From contig JBNPEG010000184.1 of the NCBI GenBank assembly GCA_051117555.1, positions 24-64,023 of the forward strand: a stretch of 64,000 nt of DNA. The letters run 5' to 3'. The notes beneath the pieces are model-generated. The model ran no database searches and was not told the origin of the DNA. It worked only from the letters and a program-made list of their open reading frames with translations. The translations under genes and the position numbers were made by a program. This document shows, one piece after another, positions 2,141-59,490 of this stretch; the first letter of the stretch is position 1; each line of letters starts with the position of its first letter. Source of the DNA: Elainellaceae cyanobacterium (GTDB lineage Bacteria; Cyanobacteriota; Cyanobacteriia; CAZCXK01).

Positions 2141-2402
2141 AGGCTCTTTAAAGAAGTTCTGAGAGTCTTTAAAGAGATTCAAAGACTCTCTAGACACTCT
2201 CAGAGACTCTTTAAAGAGATGCAGACACTCTCTAGACAATCCCAGAGACTCTTTAAAGAAGTTCCAAGACTCTCTAGACGATCCCAGAGACTCTTTAAAG
2301 AGGTTCCGAGACTCTCTAGACAATCCCAGAGACTCTTTAAAGAGGTTCGGAGACTCTTTAAAGAAGTTCAGAGACTCTCTAGAGAGATTCGAAGACTCTC
2401 TA
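2141..2402. repeat. Tandem array of about six 42-bp units with consensus AGACTCTCTAGACAATCCCAGAGACTCTTTAAAGAGGTTCCG. The 12-bp perfect palindrome CTCTTTAAAGAG is reiterated at least seven times.
   Basis: The repeat is directly visible. Both strands stay open across it (ORFs 2051-2422 + and 2123-2323 -) because of the palindromic periodicity. Unit variants are contiguous, with no interspersed unique spacers. Confidence 0.85.
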
Positions 2403-2588: not shown

Positions 2589-3017
2589 ATGCAAAACAAA
2601 CAACTGTTGGTTGATCTATCACCCGAGCAGTCTGCACTTATTGAAGGAGGCTATATGCTACACCTCCATAAAATTAAGGCTGTCAAAACAGGTGCCGATT
2701 CTGATGGCGTTGATGAGGCATATTTGTCTTTCTTTCCCGCTGATAAAATTCTTCCTACTGTTATCGGTGCTGGTAAAGTCTGGGGGGAAAGTATGAAAAG
2801 GGCAGATATCGCTCGCATCAACAAACGCTTTTCCATTGCAAGTAGCGGTTCAAGCCGCCTTAAGCTTTTTGACAACGACAGTTCTTGTAACTCAAGTCGT
2901 TTTGATTTAATCGGTGCGCTATCAATCTCAGGATTGCCACGTCGCAGAGCGAAAGCACGATTGAGCGGCGGCGGATCGACTTATGTATTGACGTATAGCG
3001 TCATGGCAACTTCCTGA
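2589..3017 (+). CDS. Double-glycine-leader precursor protein A (142 aa). The leader is MQNKQLLVDLSPEQSALIEGG and the core is about 120 aa of unknown family.
   Basis: The N-terminus fits the GG-leader consensus LSxxELxxIxGG (LSPEQSALIEGG). A paralog lies immediately downstream, followed by a C39-peptidase ABC exporter and HlyD. Conserved core motifs are HLHxIKAxKxGADxDGVDEAYLxFFP and RLSGxGSTYxLTYS. Confidence 0.8.
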   Translation: MQNKQLLVDLSPEQSALIEGGYMLHLHKIKAVKTGADSDGVDEAYLSFFPADKILPTVIGAGKVWGESMKRADIARINKRFSIASSGSSRLKLFDNDSSCNSSRFDLIGALSISGLPRRRAKARLSGGGSTYVLTYSVMATS

Positions 3018-3066: not shown

Positions 3067-3477
3067 ATGCAATCTAATCCATTGTTCATTGACCTATCAC
3101 CAGAACAATCTGCACTTATTGAAGGAGGATACATTTTTCACCTTCACAGTATTAAAGCCATTAAAGCAGGAGCCGATCGAGATGGTGTTGATGAGGCATA
3201 TTTGGCTTTCTTTCCTTCTATGGGTAGAGTAAACAAGATCTGGGAACGAAGCATGAAAACTGGCGATGTCGCTCGAATCAATCAACGGGTTCCTATTTCC
3301 AGAGTGGGGCGTACATCCCTTGCCCTTTTTGATGCAGATACCTGTAGTTCAGACGATTTGATTGGAGTTGTATCGAAGCCTAGACCGGCTCCAATACCGT
3401 TGCTTTTAGGACGTGGGACGATACGTTTGAGTGGCAGTGGCTCTACGTATGATTTGACATACAGCATTACTGCGTAA
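3067..3477 (+). CDS. Double-glycine-leader precursor protein B (136 aa), paralog of A. The leader is MQSNPLFIDLSPEQSALIEGG.
   Basis: A strong Shine-Dalgarno sequence aaggagg lies 8 nt upstream. The GG leader is identical in its last 12 residues to protein A. The core shares blocks with A: YxxHLHSIKAIKAGADRDGVDEAYLAFFP, ARINQR, LFDAD, DLIG, RLSGSGSTYDLTYS. Confidence 0.8.
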   Translation: MQSNPLFIDLSPEQSALIEGGYIFHLHSIKAIKAGADRDGVDEAYLAFFPSMGRVNKIWERSMKTGDVARINQRVPISRVGRTSLALFDADTCSSDDLIGVVSKPRPAPIPLLLGRGTIRLSGSGSTYDLTYSITA

Positions 3478-3517: not shown

Positions 3518-5731
3518 ATGCGATATCAACGTGTCCTTCAACATGACGAAGAAGACTGCGGCGCAGCCTGCGTTGCCACTGTTGCCAAACACCACGGGCG
3601 CACCTTAGCAATCAGTCGAATTCGGGAAGCCGTGGGCACCGGATCACGCGGTACGTCGCTACTCGGATTGAGTCGAGGCGCTGAATCATTAGGATTCAAC
3701 ACTCGTCAGGTGAAAGCAAACCCAGACTTTCTCGATCAGCTGCATCAAGCCCCCCTTCCTGTCATCATCCACTGGAACGGCTACCACTGGGTTGTTTTAT
3801 ATGGACGGCAGGGAAAGAAGTATGTGATTGCCGATCCAGCAGTAGGCATTCGGTATTTGACTCGTCGAGAACTGATGGAAGGGTGGGGCAATGGCGTGAT
3901 GCTATTGCTAGAACCTGATGATGGTTGGTTTTATCAGCAACCTGAAGACCAGATCGGTGGATTTGGGCGCTTTCTCCAGCGGGTGTTGCCCTATCGAAGT
4001 ATCTTGATTCAGGCGATCGCCATCAATATTTTGATTGGTCTACTATCCCTCGCGTCACCGCTGATGATGCAACTGCTCACGGATGATGTGCTGGTGCGGG
4101 GGGACACCCAACTTCTGACCACCGTGGCGATCGGCGTGATTGCGATGAATCTGTTTAGTAGCGTCATTAGTTTAGTGCAGGCGCATCTGATTGGTCATTT
4201 TGGTCAACGGCTGCAACTGGGCATGATTCTCGACTATGGGCGCAAGCTGCTGCACCTGCCCTTGAGCTACTTTGAAAGCCGTCGCAGTGGGGAAGTCGTC
4301 AGCCGCATTTCTGACGTGGATGCCGTCAATAGCCTGATTTCGCAAATCGTGTTGGGATTGCCTAGTGAATTTTTTATTGCGGTAGTATCTCTTTGTTTCA
4401 TGCTGTTTTATAGCTGGCAACTGACGCTGGCATCCCTGGCGGCTTTCGTGATCGTGACGGTAGTTAATCTGCTGTTTCTACCGGCTCTACGTCACAAAAC
4501 CCGCAATATGATTGTGTTGGGCACTGAAAATCAAGGCTTTCTGGTTGAAACATTTCGCGGGATGCAAATCCTCAAAACCACGCAAGCTACACCCCAAGCA
4601 TGGCAAGAATATCAAGCAAATTTCGGTCGGTTGGCTAATCTGGGCTGGGGCATGATGAAGCTAGAGCTGCACAGCGGCACCGTGACGGGCATTCTCTCAA
4701 CCCTGACAAGTATTTCACTGCTGTGGCTGGGTAGTTATCTGGTGATTGATCAGACGCTCACCGTGGGACAACTGCTCGCGTATAACGGCATGAGCGGCAA
4801 CTTTCTCGGCTTCCTGGGATCGGTGATTGGTTTGGTGGATGAATTTATCATGGCGCAGGTGGTGCTCCAGCGCTTAGCTGAAGTCATTGACGCGACGCCA
4901 GAAGATCAGCATGATAGCCAAAAGCCCTGGACAGAGATTCCAGCCGATGCGGATATCATATGTGCCGATCTCACCTTTCATCATGCGGGTCGGGTCGATT
5001 TGCTGCAAGATGTTTCCTTGTCCATTCCAGGCGGAGAGGTCGTGGCGCTGATTGGCAAGTCAGGCTGTGGCAAAAGCACCTTCGCTAAGCTGCTGGCTGG
5101 GTCGTATTTTCCCCAATCGGGCAACATTCGCTATGGGCTTTACAACCAGCGCGATTTGTCACTGGATTGCTTGCGGCAGCAGGTGATGTTAGTACCTCAA
5201 GAGCCCCACTTCTGGAGCCGTTCTATCATTGACAACTTCCGCTTTAGCTATCCCCACGCCACCTTTGAAAGTATCGTTCAAGCCTGTCAGATTGCGGGTG
5301 CGGATGAGTTCATTAGCAATCTACCTGACAAATACCAAACGGTGTTGGGTGAATTTGGTGCCAATCTGTCAGGCGGACAGCGGCAACGGCTGGCGATCGC
5401 CCGTGCCATTATCACTGATCCACCTGTCTTAATTCTGGATGAGTCAACAGGTGCTCTTGATCCGGTCAGTGAAGCCCAGATCCTTCAGCGGCTGTTTAAT
5501 AGTCGTCCAGGGAAAACTACGATTGTCATTAGCCATCGTCCCAGTGTTGTGCAACATGCCGACTGGCTGATCATGCTGGATCAGGGAAAGGTAGTCATTC
5601 AAGGTACGCCAGAAGATTTGCGACACCGACCCGGTGATCACCTCGATTTTCTGGGCGATGTGCCTTCATCCAATGGTTGGAATAGAAATGCAATTACGTG
5701 TACGGGCGAACGGACGTTCGCCCCTGCCTAA
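3518..5731 (+). CDS. Peptidase-C39-domain ABC transporter (PCAT; bacteriocin/GG-leader peptide processing exporter).
   Basis: The N-terminal C39 domain has the catalytic Cys in EEDCGAACVATV and His in YHWVVLYG. Six predicted TM helices are present. NBD motifs are Walker A GKSGCGKST, ABC signature LSGGQRQRLAIARA and Walker B LILDEST. Confidence 0.9.
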   Translation: MRYQRVLQHDEEDCGAACVATVAKHHGRTLAISRIREAVGTGSRGTSLLGLSRGAESLGFNTRQVKANPDFLDQLHQAPLPVIIHWNGYHWVVLYGRQGKKYVIADPAVGIRYLTRRELMEGWGNGVMLLLEPDDGWFYQQPEDQIGGFGRFLQRVLPYRSILIQAIAINILIGLLSLASPLMMQLLTDDVLVRGDTQLLTTVAIGVIAMNLFSSVISLVQAHLIGHFGQRLQLGMILDYGRKLLHLPLSYFESRRSGEVVSRISDVDAVNSLISQIVLGLPSEFFIAVVSLCFMLFYSWQLTLASLAAFVIVTVVNLLFLPALRHKTRNMIVLGTENQGFLVETFRGMQILKTTQATPQAWQEYQANFGRLANLGWGMMKLELHSGTVTGILSTLTSISLLWLGSYLVIDQTLTVGQLLAYNGMSGNFLGFLGSVIGLVDEFIMAQVVLQRLAEVIDATPEDQHDSQKPWTEIPADADIICADLTFHHAGRVDLLQDVSLSIPGGEVVALIGKSGCGKSTFAKLLAGSYFPQSGNIRYGLYNQRDLSLDCLRQQVMLVPQEPHFWSRSIIDNFRFSYPHATFESIVQACQIAGADEFISNLPDKYQTVLGEFGANLSGGQRQRLAIARAIITDPPVLILDESTGALDPVSEAQILQRLFNSRPGKTTIVISHRPSVVQHADWLIMLDQGKVVIQGTPEDLRHRPGDHLDFLGDVPSSNGWNRNAITCTGERTFAPA

Positions 5732-5898
5732 ACGATCCGCCCCTTCTGAATCAAATTTGAATACAACCTTTGAACCTTGCAATTACCTGTACGGGCGAAG
5801 CATTCGGTACACATCTTTACCTCTCTTTCATAGTACGGGCGAAGCATTCGGTACACATCTTTGCCTCTCTTTCATACCGTTTGCCCGAATGCTTCGCC
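5697..5898. repeat. Intergenic hairpin and direct-repeat cluster. A 43-bp unit gtacgggcgaagcattcggtacacatctttacctctctttcata occurs twice (5789-5831 and 5833-5875). A related palindromic hairpin gggcgaacggacgttcgccc lies at 5703-5722 and an inverted partial copy gtttgcccgaatgcttcgcc at 5879-5898.
   Basis: Directly visible in the sequence. It sits between the PCAT stop and the HlyD start. Confidence 0.7.
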
Positions 5899-5910: not shown

Positions 5911-7305
5911 TTGAATTTGGATATAATCATGGCCTTAACCCATTCCTCGGATTCAACCAACCTGCCTCCCGTTTCTGCTAATGATTTTCTGCCACCCATT
6001 AGCCGCTGGACTACTACAGGAGGATTGGTGCTCATCGGCATCATGGGCATTGCGCTGGCGATCGCCTCGGTTGCCAAATACAAGGTCACAGTGAAAGCTC
6101 CGGCCAGCATTCGTCCGGCAGGAGAATTGCGAATTGTGCAAGCAGCAACAACGGGTGCTGTGACCCATATTTTGGTGAAAGAGAATCAAGCTATTCAAAG
6201 CGGAGACATGATTGCGTTGATTGATGATTCGCAACTACAAACTAAAAAGAGCCAACTGCAAAGCGCCACCCAACAGGCTCGACTTCAAATTGCCCAGATT
6301 AATGCTCAAATTCAAGCACTCGGCGATCAAATAGTAGCTGAAGAAGACCGTATGAATCGGGCGATCGCCGCTTCTGAGGCAGAACTTAGCCAACAACATC
6401 GAGATTATCAGAACCAGCAAATTAGTACTGTAATGGAAGTCGAGGAAGCAGAAGCAGAAGTCCGATCGGCAGTGGCTAGTCTGGGTGCGGCTGAATCTCG
6501 GTATCACCGCTACCAGCCCGTTGCTCAAGCGGGTGCCCTTTCCCAAGATCAACTTGAAGAGGCACACCTGGCAGTTCAGCAACAAGAACAAGCCGTCGAA
6601 GCCGCTCAAGCACGACTGCATAGACTCCAGGCAAGGTTAAATCCCAGTTCAGCCAACGTGGCGATCGCCACTGAACGCATTGCCCAAGAACAGGCAACAG
6701 GTGCTGCTACCCTTGCCGCATTGAATAAAGAGCGGGAGGCACTGATTCAACAACGGGTAGAGATGCAAAAGCAACTAGAGCAAGACACCCGCGAACTTCA
6801 GCAAGTCGAAACTGATTTGCATCAGACGGCGATCGTCGCTACGTCTGATGGCATACTTTCAACCTTGAATCTACGAAATCCAGGACAAACTGTTAGTGCA
6901 GGAGAAACCATTGCTCAGATTGTTCCAGATGACACCCCGCTGCAAATCAAAACATTTGTGCCCCCTGAACATAGAAGCAAGCTGAATGAAGGGCAATCAG
7001 CGCTGATGCGAGTGTCTGCATGTCCCTATCCCGACTATGGCACGCTCAACGGCACGGTCAGTCAAATCTCTGAAGATACGATTAAGCCCCAAACTAGCGA
7101 TACTTTGGCAGGAAGTGTTACTACTTCTGAAAATGCACCACCCACTTACGAAGTTACTATCGAGCCAAATAACTTTGTTTTGACTAGGGGCGCAGCGGAA
7201 TGTCCTATTGAGCTGGGAATGGAAGGAACCGTTGACATTATTTCGAGAGAAGAAACGGTTCTACAGTTTTTCCTGAGAAAAGCTCGGTTGATTGCAGATA
7301 ATTGA
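5911..7305 (+). CDS. HlyD-family periplasmic adaptor (membrane fusion protein) of a type I / PCAT secretion system.
   Basis: It has an N-terminal TM segment LVLIGIMGIALAIASVA followed by a long Q/A/E-rich coiled-coil region. The C-terminal beta-rich domain ends in the conserved FFLRKARL-like motif typical of HlyD/CvaA adaptors. Its position immediately after the PCAT fits this role. Confidence 0.8.
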   Translation: MNLDIIMALTHSSDSTNLPPVSANDFLPPISRWTTTGGLVLIGIMGIALAIASVAKYKVTVKAPASIRPAGELRIVQAATTGAVTHILVKENQAIQSGDMIALIDDSQLQTKKSQLQSATQQARLQIAQINAQIQALGDQIVAEEDRMNRAIAASEAELSQQHRDYQNQQISTVMEVEEAEAEVRSAVASLGAAESRYHRYQPVAQAGALSQDQLEEAHLAVQQQEQAVEAAQARLHRLQARLNPSSANVAIATERIAQEQATGAATLAALNKEREALIQQRVEMQKQLEQDTRELQQVETDLHQTAIVATSDGILSTLNLRNPGQTVSAGETIAQIVPDDTPLQIKTFVPPEHRSKLNEGQSALMRVSACPYPDYGTLNGTVSQISEDTIKPQTSDTLAGSVTTSENAPPTYEVTIEPNNFVLTRGAAECPIELGMEGTVDIISREETVLQFFLRKARLIADN

Positions 7306-14127: not shown

Positions 14128-14313
14128 TAAGATTGTCATCGACAAACATAGGATTGTAGCTATTACAGAAGGATTGTTATTCTTCAACATAAGATTGTGG
14201 CGATCGCAGAAGGATTATTATCAACAAATGTAAGATTGTAGCTGCTACAGAAGGATTGTCATCGACAAACATAAGATTGCAATCATTACAGAAGGATTGT
14301 CAGCGACAAACAT
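14128..14313. repeat. Tandem array of about 4.5 copies of a 41-bp unit, aaGATTGT-N10-caGAAGGATTGT-N9-aACAT. The GATTGT core therefore recurs about every 20-21 bp.
   Basis: Directly visible: aagattgtagctattacagaaggattgttattcttcaacat, aagattgtggcgatcgcagaaggattattatcaacaaatgt, aagattgtagctgctacagaaggattgtcatcgacaaacat and aagattgcaatcattacagaaggattgtcagcgacaaacat. It sits in the divergent intergenic region between the response regulator and a secreted-protein gene. Confidence 0.85.
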
Positions 14314-58574: not shown

Positions 58575-58958
58575 GGGGCTGTAACGGTTTCGACGTTTTG
58601 GCGAAAGCTACCTTATGACGCAGGTCGAGAGTGAGTCTACTCTCGTAAATCAAGACTCAAACAAAAAGTAAGTGCGAATAACATCGTTCCTTTTGCTCGC
58701 AAAGCGGCTCCTGTTGCTGCTTAATTAAAACTCTTCGCGAGCGCTCATAGCTTGACTCCGTTAAGGGCTATGGGCACAACCCCAACGGATGCTCTAGTCG
58801 TTTGTCTCTGGTCAACGGCTAGCTAAGACTTCACCAGAGAATCCCTATCGTTCGGGATAATGAACGATTCCCGCCTTGAGGACAAGATAGGCTAAACCTG
58901 TGAATGAATGAGGTATTAATACCCAGAGCGGACACGGGTTCGACTCCCGTCAGCTCCA
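58575..58958 (+). ncRNA. ssrA: tmRNA (SsrA), standard one-piece form. The tag reading frame encodes ANNIVPFARKAAPVAA.
   Basis: The 5' end is GGGGCTGTAACGGTTTCGACG and the 3' tRNA-like end is GGACACGGGTTCGACTCCCGTCAGCTCCA. The internal ORF gcgaataacatcgttccttttgctcgcaaagcggctcctgttgctgcttaa gives a cyanobacterial-type tag. Confidence 0.95.
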
Positions 58959-59045: not shown

Positions 59046-59387
59046 CATAGCGAACATGCGGCCACACAGTGTTCATAACTGTTAAGAATTTCTAACCCAT
59101 CTTCTGAATTTTGAAATCCTTAATTATCCGTAAACGCCTCTGTCGAAAATCTGCGAATTTCACATATCAAATTGCGCTCACAACCAAAGTTATTGGGGCA
59201 AATTCCCGATCACGGCGAATATATCTGAAAAATTTAAAACTAGGGTTAATGTCTGCCGAGGAGAGTGTCGACGTGAAGTGTATTAGATTCGATCACCTTT
59301 GAGCGTGTCTTTGATGATCATTATGGATTATGAAAGTCTCAAGGTATTTATCTATAGATCGTGGAAAATCTAACTGAGACTACAAAT

Positions 59388-59444
59388 ATAGCAATCCTAG
59401 ATGGGTTGTGAGCGGTGGGGCGGGCAGACAGCCCCACCGCTCAC
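59388..59444 (+). promoter_or_regulatory. A 22-bp motif tatagcaatcctagatgggttg (also present at 32148-32169) is followed by a perfect 13-bp-stem hairpin gtgagcggtgggg-N11-ccccaccgctcac. The pair lies upstream of the histidine kinase gene.
   Basis: The 22-mer is identical at both sites, each upstream of a plus-strand gene. The hairpin has no U-run, so it is not a canonical terminator. Confidence 0.4.
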
Positions 59445-59490
59445 ACACCATTCACAAGCGATTTAGGATCGCTATAGTTAATCAAACGAA

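Follow-up and report, generated by a model that had tools for sequence, protein, structure and literature searches.

The tandem array and the gene remnant beside it

A stretch of 64,000 nucleotides of an Elainellaceae cyanobacterium (contig JBNPEG010000184.1, positions 24 to 64,023; the whole stretch is called the window, and coordinates count from its first letter) was analysed for a tandem array of short palindromic repeats near its left end. In a previous sequence-only reading, an array of 42-bp units had been placed at 2141-2402 and interpreted as a set of phased binding sites that regulate a downstream operon for double-glycine (GG)-leader peptides. We compared the array and its surroundings with related loci, which are designated by L and a number. 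The following features were assigned to the left end of the window.

33-1850, + strand: C-terminal part of a TPR (STAND-type) gene (Pfam TPR_12/TPR_10, E 1e-140)
1904-1943, no strand: (AAATCCA)n heptanucleotide repeat of the short tandemly repeated repetitive (STRR) type (Tandem Repeats Finder (TRF), period 7, 5.7 copies), present at the orthologous place in L025
1945-2088, + strand: pseudogene remnant, the last 47 codons and the stop of a ~158-aa gene (hidden Markov model (HMM) and alignments with full-length genes)
2089-2137, + strand: linker conserved with L025 and L052 (alignment)
2138-2410, no strand: tandem array of 13 head-to-tail 21-bp units, the last one degenerate (TRF, motif positions, unit listing)
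2411-2423, no strand: short conserved tail (..TCTCCTAAGTAAG) (alignment; BLAST end point of L052 at 2423)

The array is a real tandem repeat, far above chance, and its base period is 21 bp. TRF reported 2138-2403 with period 21 and 12.7 copies, and also 2161-2402 with period 42, 5.8 copies, 86% matches and a score of 309. The array of the sequence-only reading therefore exists, but its 42 bp are a super-period that results from two alternating unit types. Type A, CAGAGACTCTTTAAAGAGGTT, contains ..AGACTCTTTAAAGAR.. and CTCTTTAAAGAR; type B, CCAAGACTCTCTAGACAATCC, contains ..AGACTCTCTAGAS.. and CTCTCTAGAS. The core AGACTCTYTA is common to both types, and the exact core AGACTC(T/A)(T/C)TA stands in 21-bp register in 10 of the 13 units.

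Each 21-bp unit holds a dyad of 12-14 bp. Twelve dyad centres, derived from the motif positions and running from 2149.5 to 2380.5, are all spaced by exactly 21.0 bp, which bears out the earlier proposal that the palindromes lie on one face of the helix. Their perfection had been overstated. At least seven perfect copies had been counted, but CTCTTTAAAGAG is perfect only three times (at 2207, 2291 and 2333), and four more copies (at 2144, 2165, 2249 and 2354) carry one mismatch. Outside the array this 12-mer was not found in the 64 kb, where 0.17 copies were expected. The second dyad that had been suggested was recovered: TCTCTAGA occurs in five copies within the array, and its full form CTCTCTAGAGAG once, at 2375. 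No promoter was predicted within the array. Rfam 15 gave no match at gathering score; PyrR (33 bits versus 54 required) and unrelated animal microRNA hairpins stayed below threshold, and these matches were rejected as artefacts of self-complementary repeats.

The array shares partly palindromic repeats and regular spacing with CRISPR arrays, but has neither unique spacers nor cas genes nor a leader. Its period is 21 bp, and the ~9 variable nucleotides recur between units. CRISPR was thus ruled out, in agreement with the earlier reading.

The history of the locus was reconstructed by alignment. Positions 883-1936 of the window are 88.6% identical in nucleotide sequence to L025, a contig of an Elainellaceae metagenome-assembled genome, and 1940-2400 are 84% identical. 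L025 keeps an intact 158-aa gene, and the order of TPR gene, 158-aa gene and array is conserved. The window lacks ~450 bp that are present in L025 and that comprise the promoter region and codons 1 to ~111; the match of the family HMM to the 'ORF' (open reading frame) at 1945-2088 is confined to profile positions 111-156. The deletion junction lies between two TCGATG direct repeats, so a microhomology-mediated deletion is indicated. By these alignments the array of the window is a relic of the module TPR gene, 158-aa gene and array after the ~450-bp deletion.

Homology with L025, L052 and L029 stops ~13 bp past the last unit; further to the right they have no sequence in common with the window. 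The alternative offered in the sequence-only reading, a satellite at an insertion or rearrangement boundary, fits this arrangement, in which the array stands at a synteny break and beside a microhomology deletion. That reading had the array flanked by a STAND NTPase gene and the GG-leader operon, which was true but incomplete, since the gene remnant at 1945-2088 and a hairpin at 2109-2132 intervene. The hairpin lies in the linker and has an 8-bp stem (GATCGAGT at 2109-2116, ACTCGATC at 2125-2132) and an 8-nt loop. Its stem is conserved in L025 and L052 and its loop varies; the predicted RNA fold has -16.2 kcal/mol and a z score of -2.0. It contains a GCGATCG resembling highly iterated palindrome 1 (HIP1). 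Within the TPR gene, a 126-bp tandem repeat at 697-1674 (7.8 copies, 91% identical) encodes near-identical TPR_12 units of 42 residues, which suggests a recent expansion or homogenisation of these units.

A dispersed family of 21-bp dyad repeats

One genome per prokaryotic species was scanned with the pattern AGACTCTYTA-N11-AGACTCTYTA, in which two cores stand 21 bp apart. Of the 77 loci that the scan returned, ~60 are from cyanobacteria, and in several genomes they lie on 4 to 10 or more contigs. Cyanobacterial hosts were Nostoc, Tolypothrix, Fischerella, Scytonema, Dendronalium, Spirirestis, Coleofasciculaceae, Elainellaceae and Nodosilinea. The loci outside cyanobacteria held 2-4 matching units and were near the chance count expected for the pattern. 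At ~50 cyanobacterial loci the core stands in 21-bp register, in arrays of 4-23 units. The unit is made up of a conserved, dyad-symmetric core of 11-12 nt, CTC(T/A)TTAA(A/T)GAG or CTCTCTAGAGAG, plus ~9 variable bases. The consensus in Nostocales is CAAAGACTC(T/A)TTAATGAGTAT or ..GGAGTT, and Elainellaceae arrays have A and B units as in the window. Filamentous cyanobacteria are known for short repeats such as HIP1, STRR and miniature inverted-repeat transposable elements (MITEs). The motif strings occurred in no paper of the searchable literature, and no description of a 21-bp dyad-repeat family was found there; the family is widespread in filamentous cyanobacteria and apparently undescribed.

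Copy number varies between relatives, a check that had been proposed with the earlier reading and was carried out here: the window has 13 units, L025 15-16, L052 14 and L029 11. A three-way alignment of the arrays of the window, L025 and L052 contained three indels, each of exactly 21 bp, and such length changes by whole units fit slippage. Unit variants were more alike within a genome (mean cosine 0.36) than between genomes (0.22). The array L065, for example, had a cosine of 0.83 to L012 of its own genome, compared with 0.25 and 0.16 to its orthologues L051 and L058. Such likeness of unit sequences within a genome suggests homogenisation between arrays or co-evolution with a trans factor. 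The sharing of unit variants within the genome over orthologues was seen for L012/L065, L051/L058, L032/L047 and L064/L070 and is a sign of concerted evolution. In the left flanks of L069 and L076 a second array, made of inverted units of the family (AGTGAGATGAATGAGTCTTTK), adjoins the forward one, and together they form a long composite palindrome.

Two origins were considered for the family and rejected. No arrays were present in IMG/VR viral contigs, which contained only single chance matches, and the 158-aa family was absent from phage records; a phage or plasmid origin was discarded on these grounds. A mobile element of the MITE or BOX type was discarded because conserved non-repeat termini are missing and the array edges decay into partial units.

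The position of the arrays was surveyed with crude ORFs of at least 120 aa, and both flanks were known for 34 arrays. Flanking genes were convergent in 17 cases, tandem in 14 and divergent in 3. The neighbours that face an array with their 3' end are unrelated to each other and include catalase, dihydroxy-acid dehydratase (IlvD/ilvD), a RecJ-like DHH protein, NDH-2 and CHAT-TPR, as well as genes that we take, from reading the sequence, to be NifJ and MetH. The units had no constant direction with respect to the closest gene upstream (~25 co-directional and 19 anti-directional in a hand tally), and the fixed orientation that would be expected for an RNA element was not found among the surveyed arrays. 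Relative to the 158-aa gene, the units run in reverse in Nostocales and forward in Elainellaceae and Kovacikia. The sequence-only reading had itself named an outcome that would speak against it, a common dispersed satellite with no regulatory bias in position, and the survey returned such a satellite, at 3'-end loci of unrelated genes and rarely between divergent ones. We lean towards regarding the array of the window as one copy of a dispersed, multi-copy, non-coding family of 21-bp minisatellites and, if it acts at all, as a structural element of 3' ends.

The interpretation as operators concerned the region to the right of the array, which contains the following features.

2454-2531, no strand: inverted-repeat 'leader element' (GTAGGTTGGGTT ... 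GTTGGGTTTCG ... CCAACCTAC) (sequence)
2589-3017 and 3067-3477, + strand: two double-glycine-leader precursor ORFs (ORF list)
3518-5731, + strand: C39-peptidase ABC exporter (Pfam Peptidase_C39, ABC_membrane, ABC_tran)
5911-7305, + strand: HlyD-type protein (Pfam HlyD_3)

The sole promoter-like site of the region, at 2542-2571, lies downstream of the array at a distance of ~130 bp, and the dyads are phased; both points are compatible with palindromes that serve as operators for a transcription factor at the promoter of the GG-leader peptide and export operon. The comparative results speak against such operators. The array is joined to the gene remnant on its left, and at its right edge homology to related genomes breaks off; members of the family stand at 3' ends of unrelated genes and seldom between divergent ones. 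We also examined 80 metagenomic loci with homologues 60-81% identical to the C39-ABC exporter of the window. Neither an array of the family nor any period-21 repeat was present upstream of the exporter homologue (0 of 80), and the four period-21 matches among these loci were all downstream of it. The exporter was used for this comparison in place of the first GG-leader precursor, for which no homologues were found in metagenomes. A regulatory array at this operon is therefore extremely improbable, and the array is unfit for inferring how the bacteriocin-like GG-leader operon is regulated. By synteny it belongs with the left-hand module, with no specific link to the operon. The leader element is a separate dispersed cyanobacterial repeat and no part of the array: its motif was also found 16 bp past the Calothrix array (L100, position 3330) and in L007, L033, L046 and L064, and it stood upstream of exporter homologues at 4 of 69 loci.

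The 158-residue companion gene and the nature of the array

Clustering of the flanking ORFs yielded a protein of ~158 aa whose gene points with its 3' end towards the array at 12 loci, and the family HMM raised the loci with gene and array to 15, the window counted. In a first search the family reached at least 701 members (clustered at 90%); every one was annotated as 'hypothetical' and lacked a Pfam domain. A profile search gave 3,331 clusters at 50% identity, many of them outside cyanobacteria. The repeat family points to a conserved orphan gene (~3,300 sequence clusters, no Pfam domain), of which the cyanobacterial members almost invariably precede such an array.

In a survey from the side of the gene, the DNA 3' of 158-aa homologues was inspected in 12 distinct genomes or metagenomic contigs. 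A period-21 tandem array was present within 0-240 bp downstream in 9 of them (N. punctiforme, another Nostoc, Calothrix NIES-22, Kovacikia, Oscillatoria FACHB-1407, Oculatella, Stenomitos and two metagenomic contigs), and no array was found 3' of the gene in the remaining three (Nodosilinea, L098 and L103). A homologue on a Thiodictyon plasmid (38% identity) had no array either. In most of the cyanobacterial lineages that were examined, the ~158-aa gene is followed directly on its 3' side by a 21-bp array. In the genetically tractable N. punctiforme ATCC 29133, the gene is ACC79204.1 and the array occupies ~527,180-527,410 of CP001037.1. The array begins at the TGA in N. punctiforme, within ~11 bp of the stop in other Nostocales and 49 bp after it in the window; in Kovacikia an STRR block lies between gene and array. 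The units in Oscillatoria, Oculatella, Stenomitos, L101 and L102 are unrelated to those of the window, and the period is still 21 (or 42/84). Most units of these unrelated arrays hold a dyad of 6-10 bp, and one array is GC-rich. The L101 array consists of 20 copies of the GC-rich GAAGGTGTCGGGCGAGCTTCA, has been called as a 159-aa gene and lies beside TIR and AAA_16 genes. In L102, one frame of the 19 units reads IAEIAGAIKKITRP.

The AlphaFold model of the 158-aa protein is confident and all-helical, with one helix of 54 residues. No domain of Pfam, NCBIfam, PHROG or PADLOC and no fold match in PDB or BFVD was found for the family; there was no match to a transposase family in Pfam, NCBIfam or PHROGs, and by our reading the sequence contains no histidine. 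At loci L078, L079, L100, L025, L029, L101 and L102, the gene often lies beside STAND-type or defence-like genes (NNH2-NACHT-HEAT, TPR, CHAT-TPR, TIR with AAA_16, HNH, HicAB).

The close association of gene and array raises the question of a protein that binds the repeats. The array could be a row of phased sites at which a dimeric protein, DNA-binding or nucleoid-associated, docks; the 158-aa protein could be this factor, and the dispersed arrays would be its further sites. By analogy, the layout would resemble the sopC centromere of the F plasmid, which lies just downstream of sopB and consists of 12 units of 43 bp with an inverted repeat in each. As in sopC and in iterons, a tandem array of dyad units lies directly 3' of a particular gene, and its phasing would allow cooperative binding. 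One dyad per unit, dyad centres 21 bp or two helical turns apart, dyad symmetry kept by paired changes, independence of the orientation of neighbouring genes and the position directly behind one conserved gene in most lineages examined are all in line with such sites, and arrays of one genome share unit variants as if they co-evolved with a trans factor. The protein fits this role poorly. It is 60-80% identical across lineages with unrelated units, that is, it is conserved while the units diverge, a misfit with sequence-specific recognition. Domain and fold searches revealed no binder of the ParB, ribbon-helix-helix or Rep type and no helix-turn-helix signature in the adjacent gene, and the all-helical model has no detectable DNA-binding fold, nor has the protein a detectable relative of known function in structure or sequence. 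Arrays are lacking behind the homologues from outside cyanobacteria and behind some of the cyanobacterial ones, and a single substitution that disrupts the palindrome (TCTCCAGA) has propagated along the Kovacikia array. Unlike sopC, the arrays are chromosomal and occupy many loci, and no ParA-like partner ATPase is consistently nearby. Binding of this kind is unlikely in our judgement.

Gene and array might also form an ancient two-part functional module of cyanobacteria, in which the array would be either the code for a rapidly evolving heptad partner or extension of the protein, reached through the +1 frame that is open over the junction at most loci, or the cis site of the protein, with the dispersed arrays as additional sites; the window would hold a dead copy. 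The module would have persisted across orders despite complete turnover of the unit sequence; we regard it as a doubtful proposal. If gene and array are linked in function, they would represent a novel type of cis element or a novel route to repeat proteins.

A heptad partner requires that the arrays are read as protein. Both strands of the window array are open, as had been noted before, with a + strand ORF at 2051-2422 (123 aa, GTG start, heptads QRLFKEV/PRLSRQS) and a - strand ORF at 2123-2323 (66 aa). The earlier statement that they are open only through the periodicity is essentially right, since a stop-free 21-mer is automatically open and no frame is open in all arrays. In the unit, conservation forms one contiguous block at positions 3-13. 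In each frame, all three codon positions had the same mean information. Changes at variable unit positions alter the amino-acid class or create stops, and triplets swap between Q, L, P, R and stop. The three frames were open in 31, 42 and 42 of 53 arrays. Among 14 gene-linked lineages, 10 have an open frame that runs across the array in the direction of the gene, and 3 (Calothrix, Dendronalium and Oculatella) have no co-directional one. Scoring of frames by heptad a/d positions was discarded as evidence for coding, as antisense frames score equally.

No protein among 5.8 billion matched the + strand ORF of the window at E <= 0.01, and 1672 candidates that shared words with it failed, a weak negative in that the composition correction of HMMER penalises repeats. 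Pfam returned sub-threshold coiled-coil noise for the same ORF (best DUF948, 28 bits versus a cut-off of 37). The array 'protein' of N. punctiforme, taken with an M start, was looked up by exact match and is absent from the protein collection.

At 12 of 16 loci (L004, L025, L029, L033, L041, L047, L052, L064, L078, L079, L081 and the window, 2051-2422), the frame shifted by +1 against the 158-aa gene has no stop over a stretch that begins 55-109 nt ahead of the stop codon of the gene and covers the whole array. This openness was seen in both orientations of the array and could be due to chance, an inherited phase or a translational link. In P0096, a metagenomic protein of 231 aa on a 1692-bp contig, the 158-aa domain runs in frame into the heptads of an array (..YLINESFFLASEFLHLIDESFLLVSESQNLIEESF..). 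Fusion in nature, loss of the stop codon and faulty assembly are all conceivable causes.

On these data the arrays might be translated into small, fast-evolving, coiled-coil-like peptides of heptad repeats, either as the second gene of a two-gene operon with the 158-aa gene, with a start codon of their own, or as a C-terminal extension of the 158-aa protein through a +1 shift or overlap at the end of its gene. The window would then contain the remnant of a small ORF (2051/2105-2422). Clean a/d heptads such as LNSINES in Nostoc, KVSGELR in L101 and IAEIAGAIKK in L102, the frequent co-directional open frame and the conservation of the GTG at 2105 in L025 and L052 agree with this proposal. On the other side, any stop-free unit of 21 nt gives an open, heptad-periodic frame, and the antisense frame is equally good. 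No frame is universally open; stops occur within the unit in Calothrix, Dendronalium, Oculatella and many dispersed arrays, and variation shows no excess at third positions. Nostocales differ from Elainellaceae and Kovacikia in the direction of the array with respect to the gene, and in Kovacikia the STRR block stands between array and gene. In the window itself, the GTG at 2051 corresponds to GCG in L052, the linker changes compared with L052 are 5 non-synonymous to 2 synonymous (hand count), every second heptad of the frames contains a proline, and the protein search gave no homologues. Translation of the arrays is accordingly of low probability.

Conservation in a contiguous block without codon periodicity, together with the lack of a universally open frame, makes a non-coding, structure-forming 3' element most likely. 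The dyads are maintained by paired changes, in which TTAA and CTAG replace each other at unit positions 10 and 13: 221 of 258 distinct units pair, compared with 145 expected, although the pairing may partly reflect two old unit lineages. Folding of array RNA was stronger than that of shuffled sequences, with z scores of -2.7 for the window and -7.5 for N. punctiforme. If the array acts at all, it would do so through its structure and without a coded product. The self-complementary units could fold a transcript or single-stranded DNA into long imperfect hairpins, and in the duplex they would present identical dyads on one face every two helical turns. As a 3'-end element that works in either orientation, the array might affect transcript ends or stability or insulate transcription units from each other, in the manner proposed for repetitive extragenic palindromic (REP) sequences and bacterial interspersed mosaic elements (BIMEs). 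Alternatively, it may be largely selfish DNA that is tolerated only where promoters stay undisturbed. To our knowledge, cyanobacteria have no Rho factor, and the biology of their transcript 3' ends is poorly understood.

Several points weigh against this reading of the array as a non-coding element of 3' ends. The mode of action that we consider most likely, structural and non-coding, as a 3'-end hairpin or insulator or as tolerated selfish DNA, is purely inferred. Single-unit hairpins are short and A+U-rich and are not followed by a U-tract, so they are not classical intrinsic terminators. The bias towards 3' ends rests on crude ORF calls and becomes weaker and moderately significant when orthologous loci are collapsed (~11 convergent, 13 tandem and 3 divergent). 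Four further points favour translation instead: the period of exactly seven codons behind the same gene despite unrelated units (L082, L092, L094, L101 and L102), the +1 frame that is open across the junction of gene and array in 12 of 16 gene-linked arrays, the in-frame fusion in P0096, and the annotation of some arrays as genes by the gene callers of GenBank and JGI. Several arrays are annotated as hypothetical proteins, and knowledge of the repeat family prevents such mis-annotation.

Comparison with known repeats and other repeats of the window

The family consists of intergenic repeats that are REP/BIME-like in position and dyad symmetry and resemble mycobacterial interspersed repetitive units (MIRUs) and other variable-number tandem repeats (VNTRs) in their tandem structure. 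With the REP and BIME sequences of enterobacteria and pseudomonads, whose imperfect palindromic units measure 20-40 bp, it shares short imperfect palindromes, extragenic location at gene 3' ends and in convergent gaps, many clustered copies and the capacity to fold in the transcript. The roles proposed for REP and BIME sequences are structural and comprise protection of mRNA 3' ends, termination and binding of gyrase or IHF. The arrays differ from them in being strict direct repeats with a fixed period of 21 bp, whereas REP/BIME copies alternate in orientation; only L069 and L076 showed an inverted array alongside. They occupy tens of loci per genome instead of hundreds, their units are A+T-rich and lack the GTAG/CGTC tag, and no REP-associated tyrosine transposase (RAYT; IS200/IS605-like, HUH) was seen near the arrays at the loci examined.

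MIRU-type intergenic minisatellites of Mycobacterium reportedly have units of 46-101 bp. Like them, the arrays are intergenic direct tandem repeats, differ by whole units between related genomes and contain open frames that may be incidental. MIRU ends can overlap the stop or start codon of a flanking gene; the arrays vary in this respect, from a start at the TGA itself in N. punctiforme to one 49 bp after the stop in the window. The unit of 21 bp, its strong internal dyad, the mostly terminal or convergent position outside operons and the different phylum set them apart. The 21-bp arrays are ready VNTR markers for strain typing of Nostoc and its relatives. STRR sequences are likewise tandem, intergenic and typical of filamentous cyanobacteria, heterocystous and other, and the (AAATCCA)n block lies 200 bp to the left of the array in the window. 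STRR units are 7 bp long and non-palindromic, however, and the 21-bp unit is not composed of three heptamers.

Other repeats were recorded elsewhere in the window. At 14131-14313 there is a second, unrelated intergenic array with a period of 41 bp and 4.5 copies. It alternates units of 21 and 20 bp of the form AAGATTGT-N9-10-ACAKA, whose centres are partly palindromic and variable (for example TGTAGCTGCTACA), one of them with HIP1 (GCGATCGC). A 44-bp direct repeat in two copies, 97% identical (GTACGGGCGAAGCATTCGGTACAC...), lies at 5789-5876 between the ABC exporter and the HlyD gene. Shortly past the tmRNA gene (58575-58958), a 93-bp stretch at 59386-59476 is 90% identical to positions 846-938 of L057, another Elainellaceae contig.

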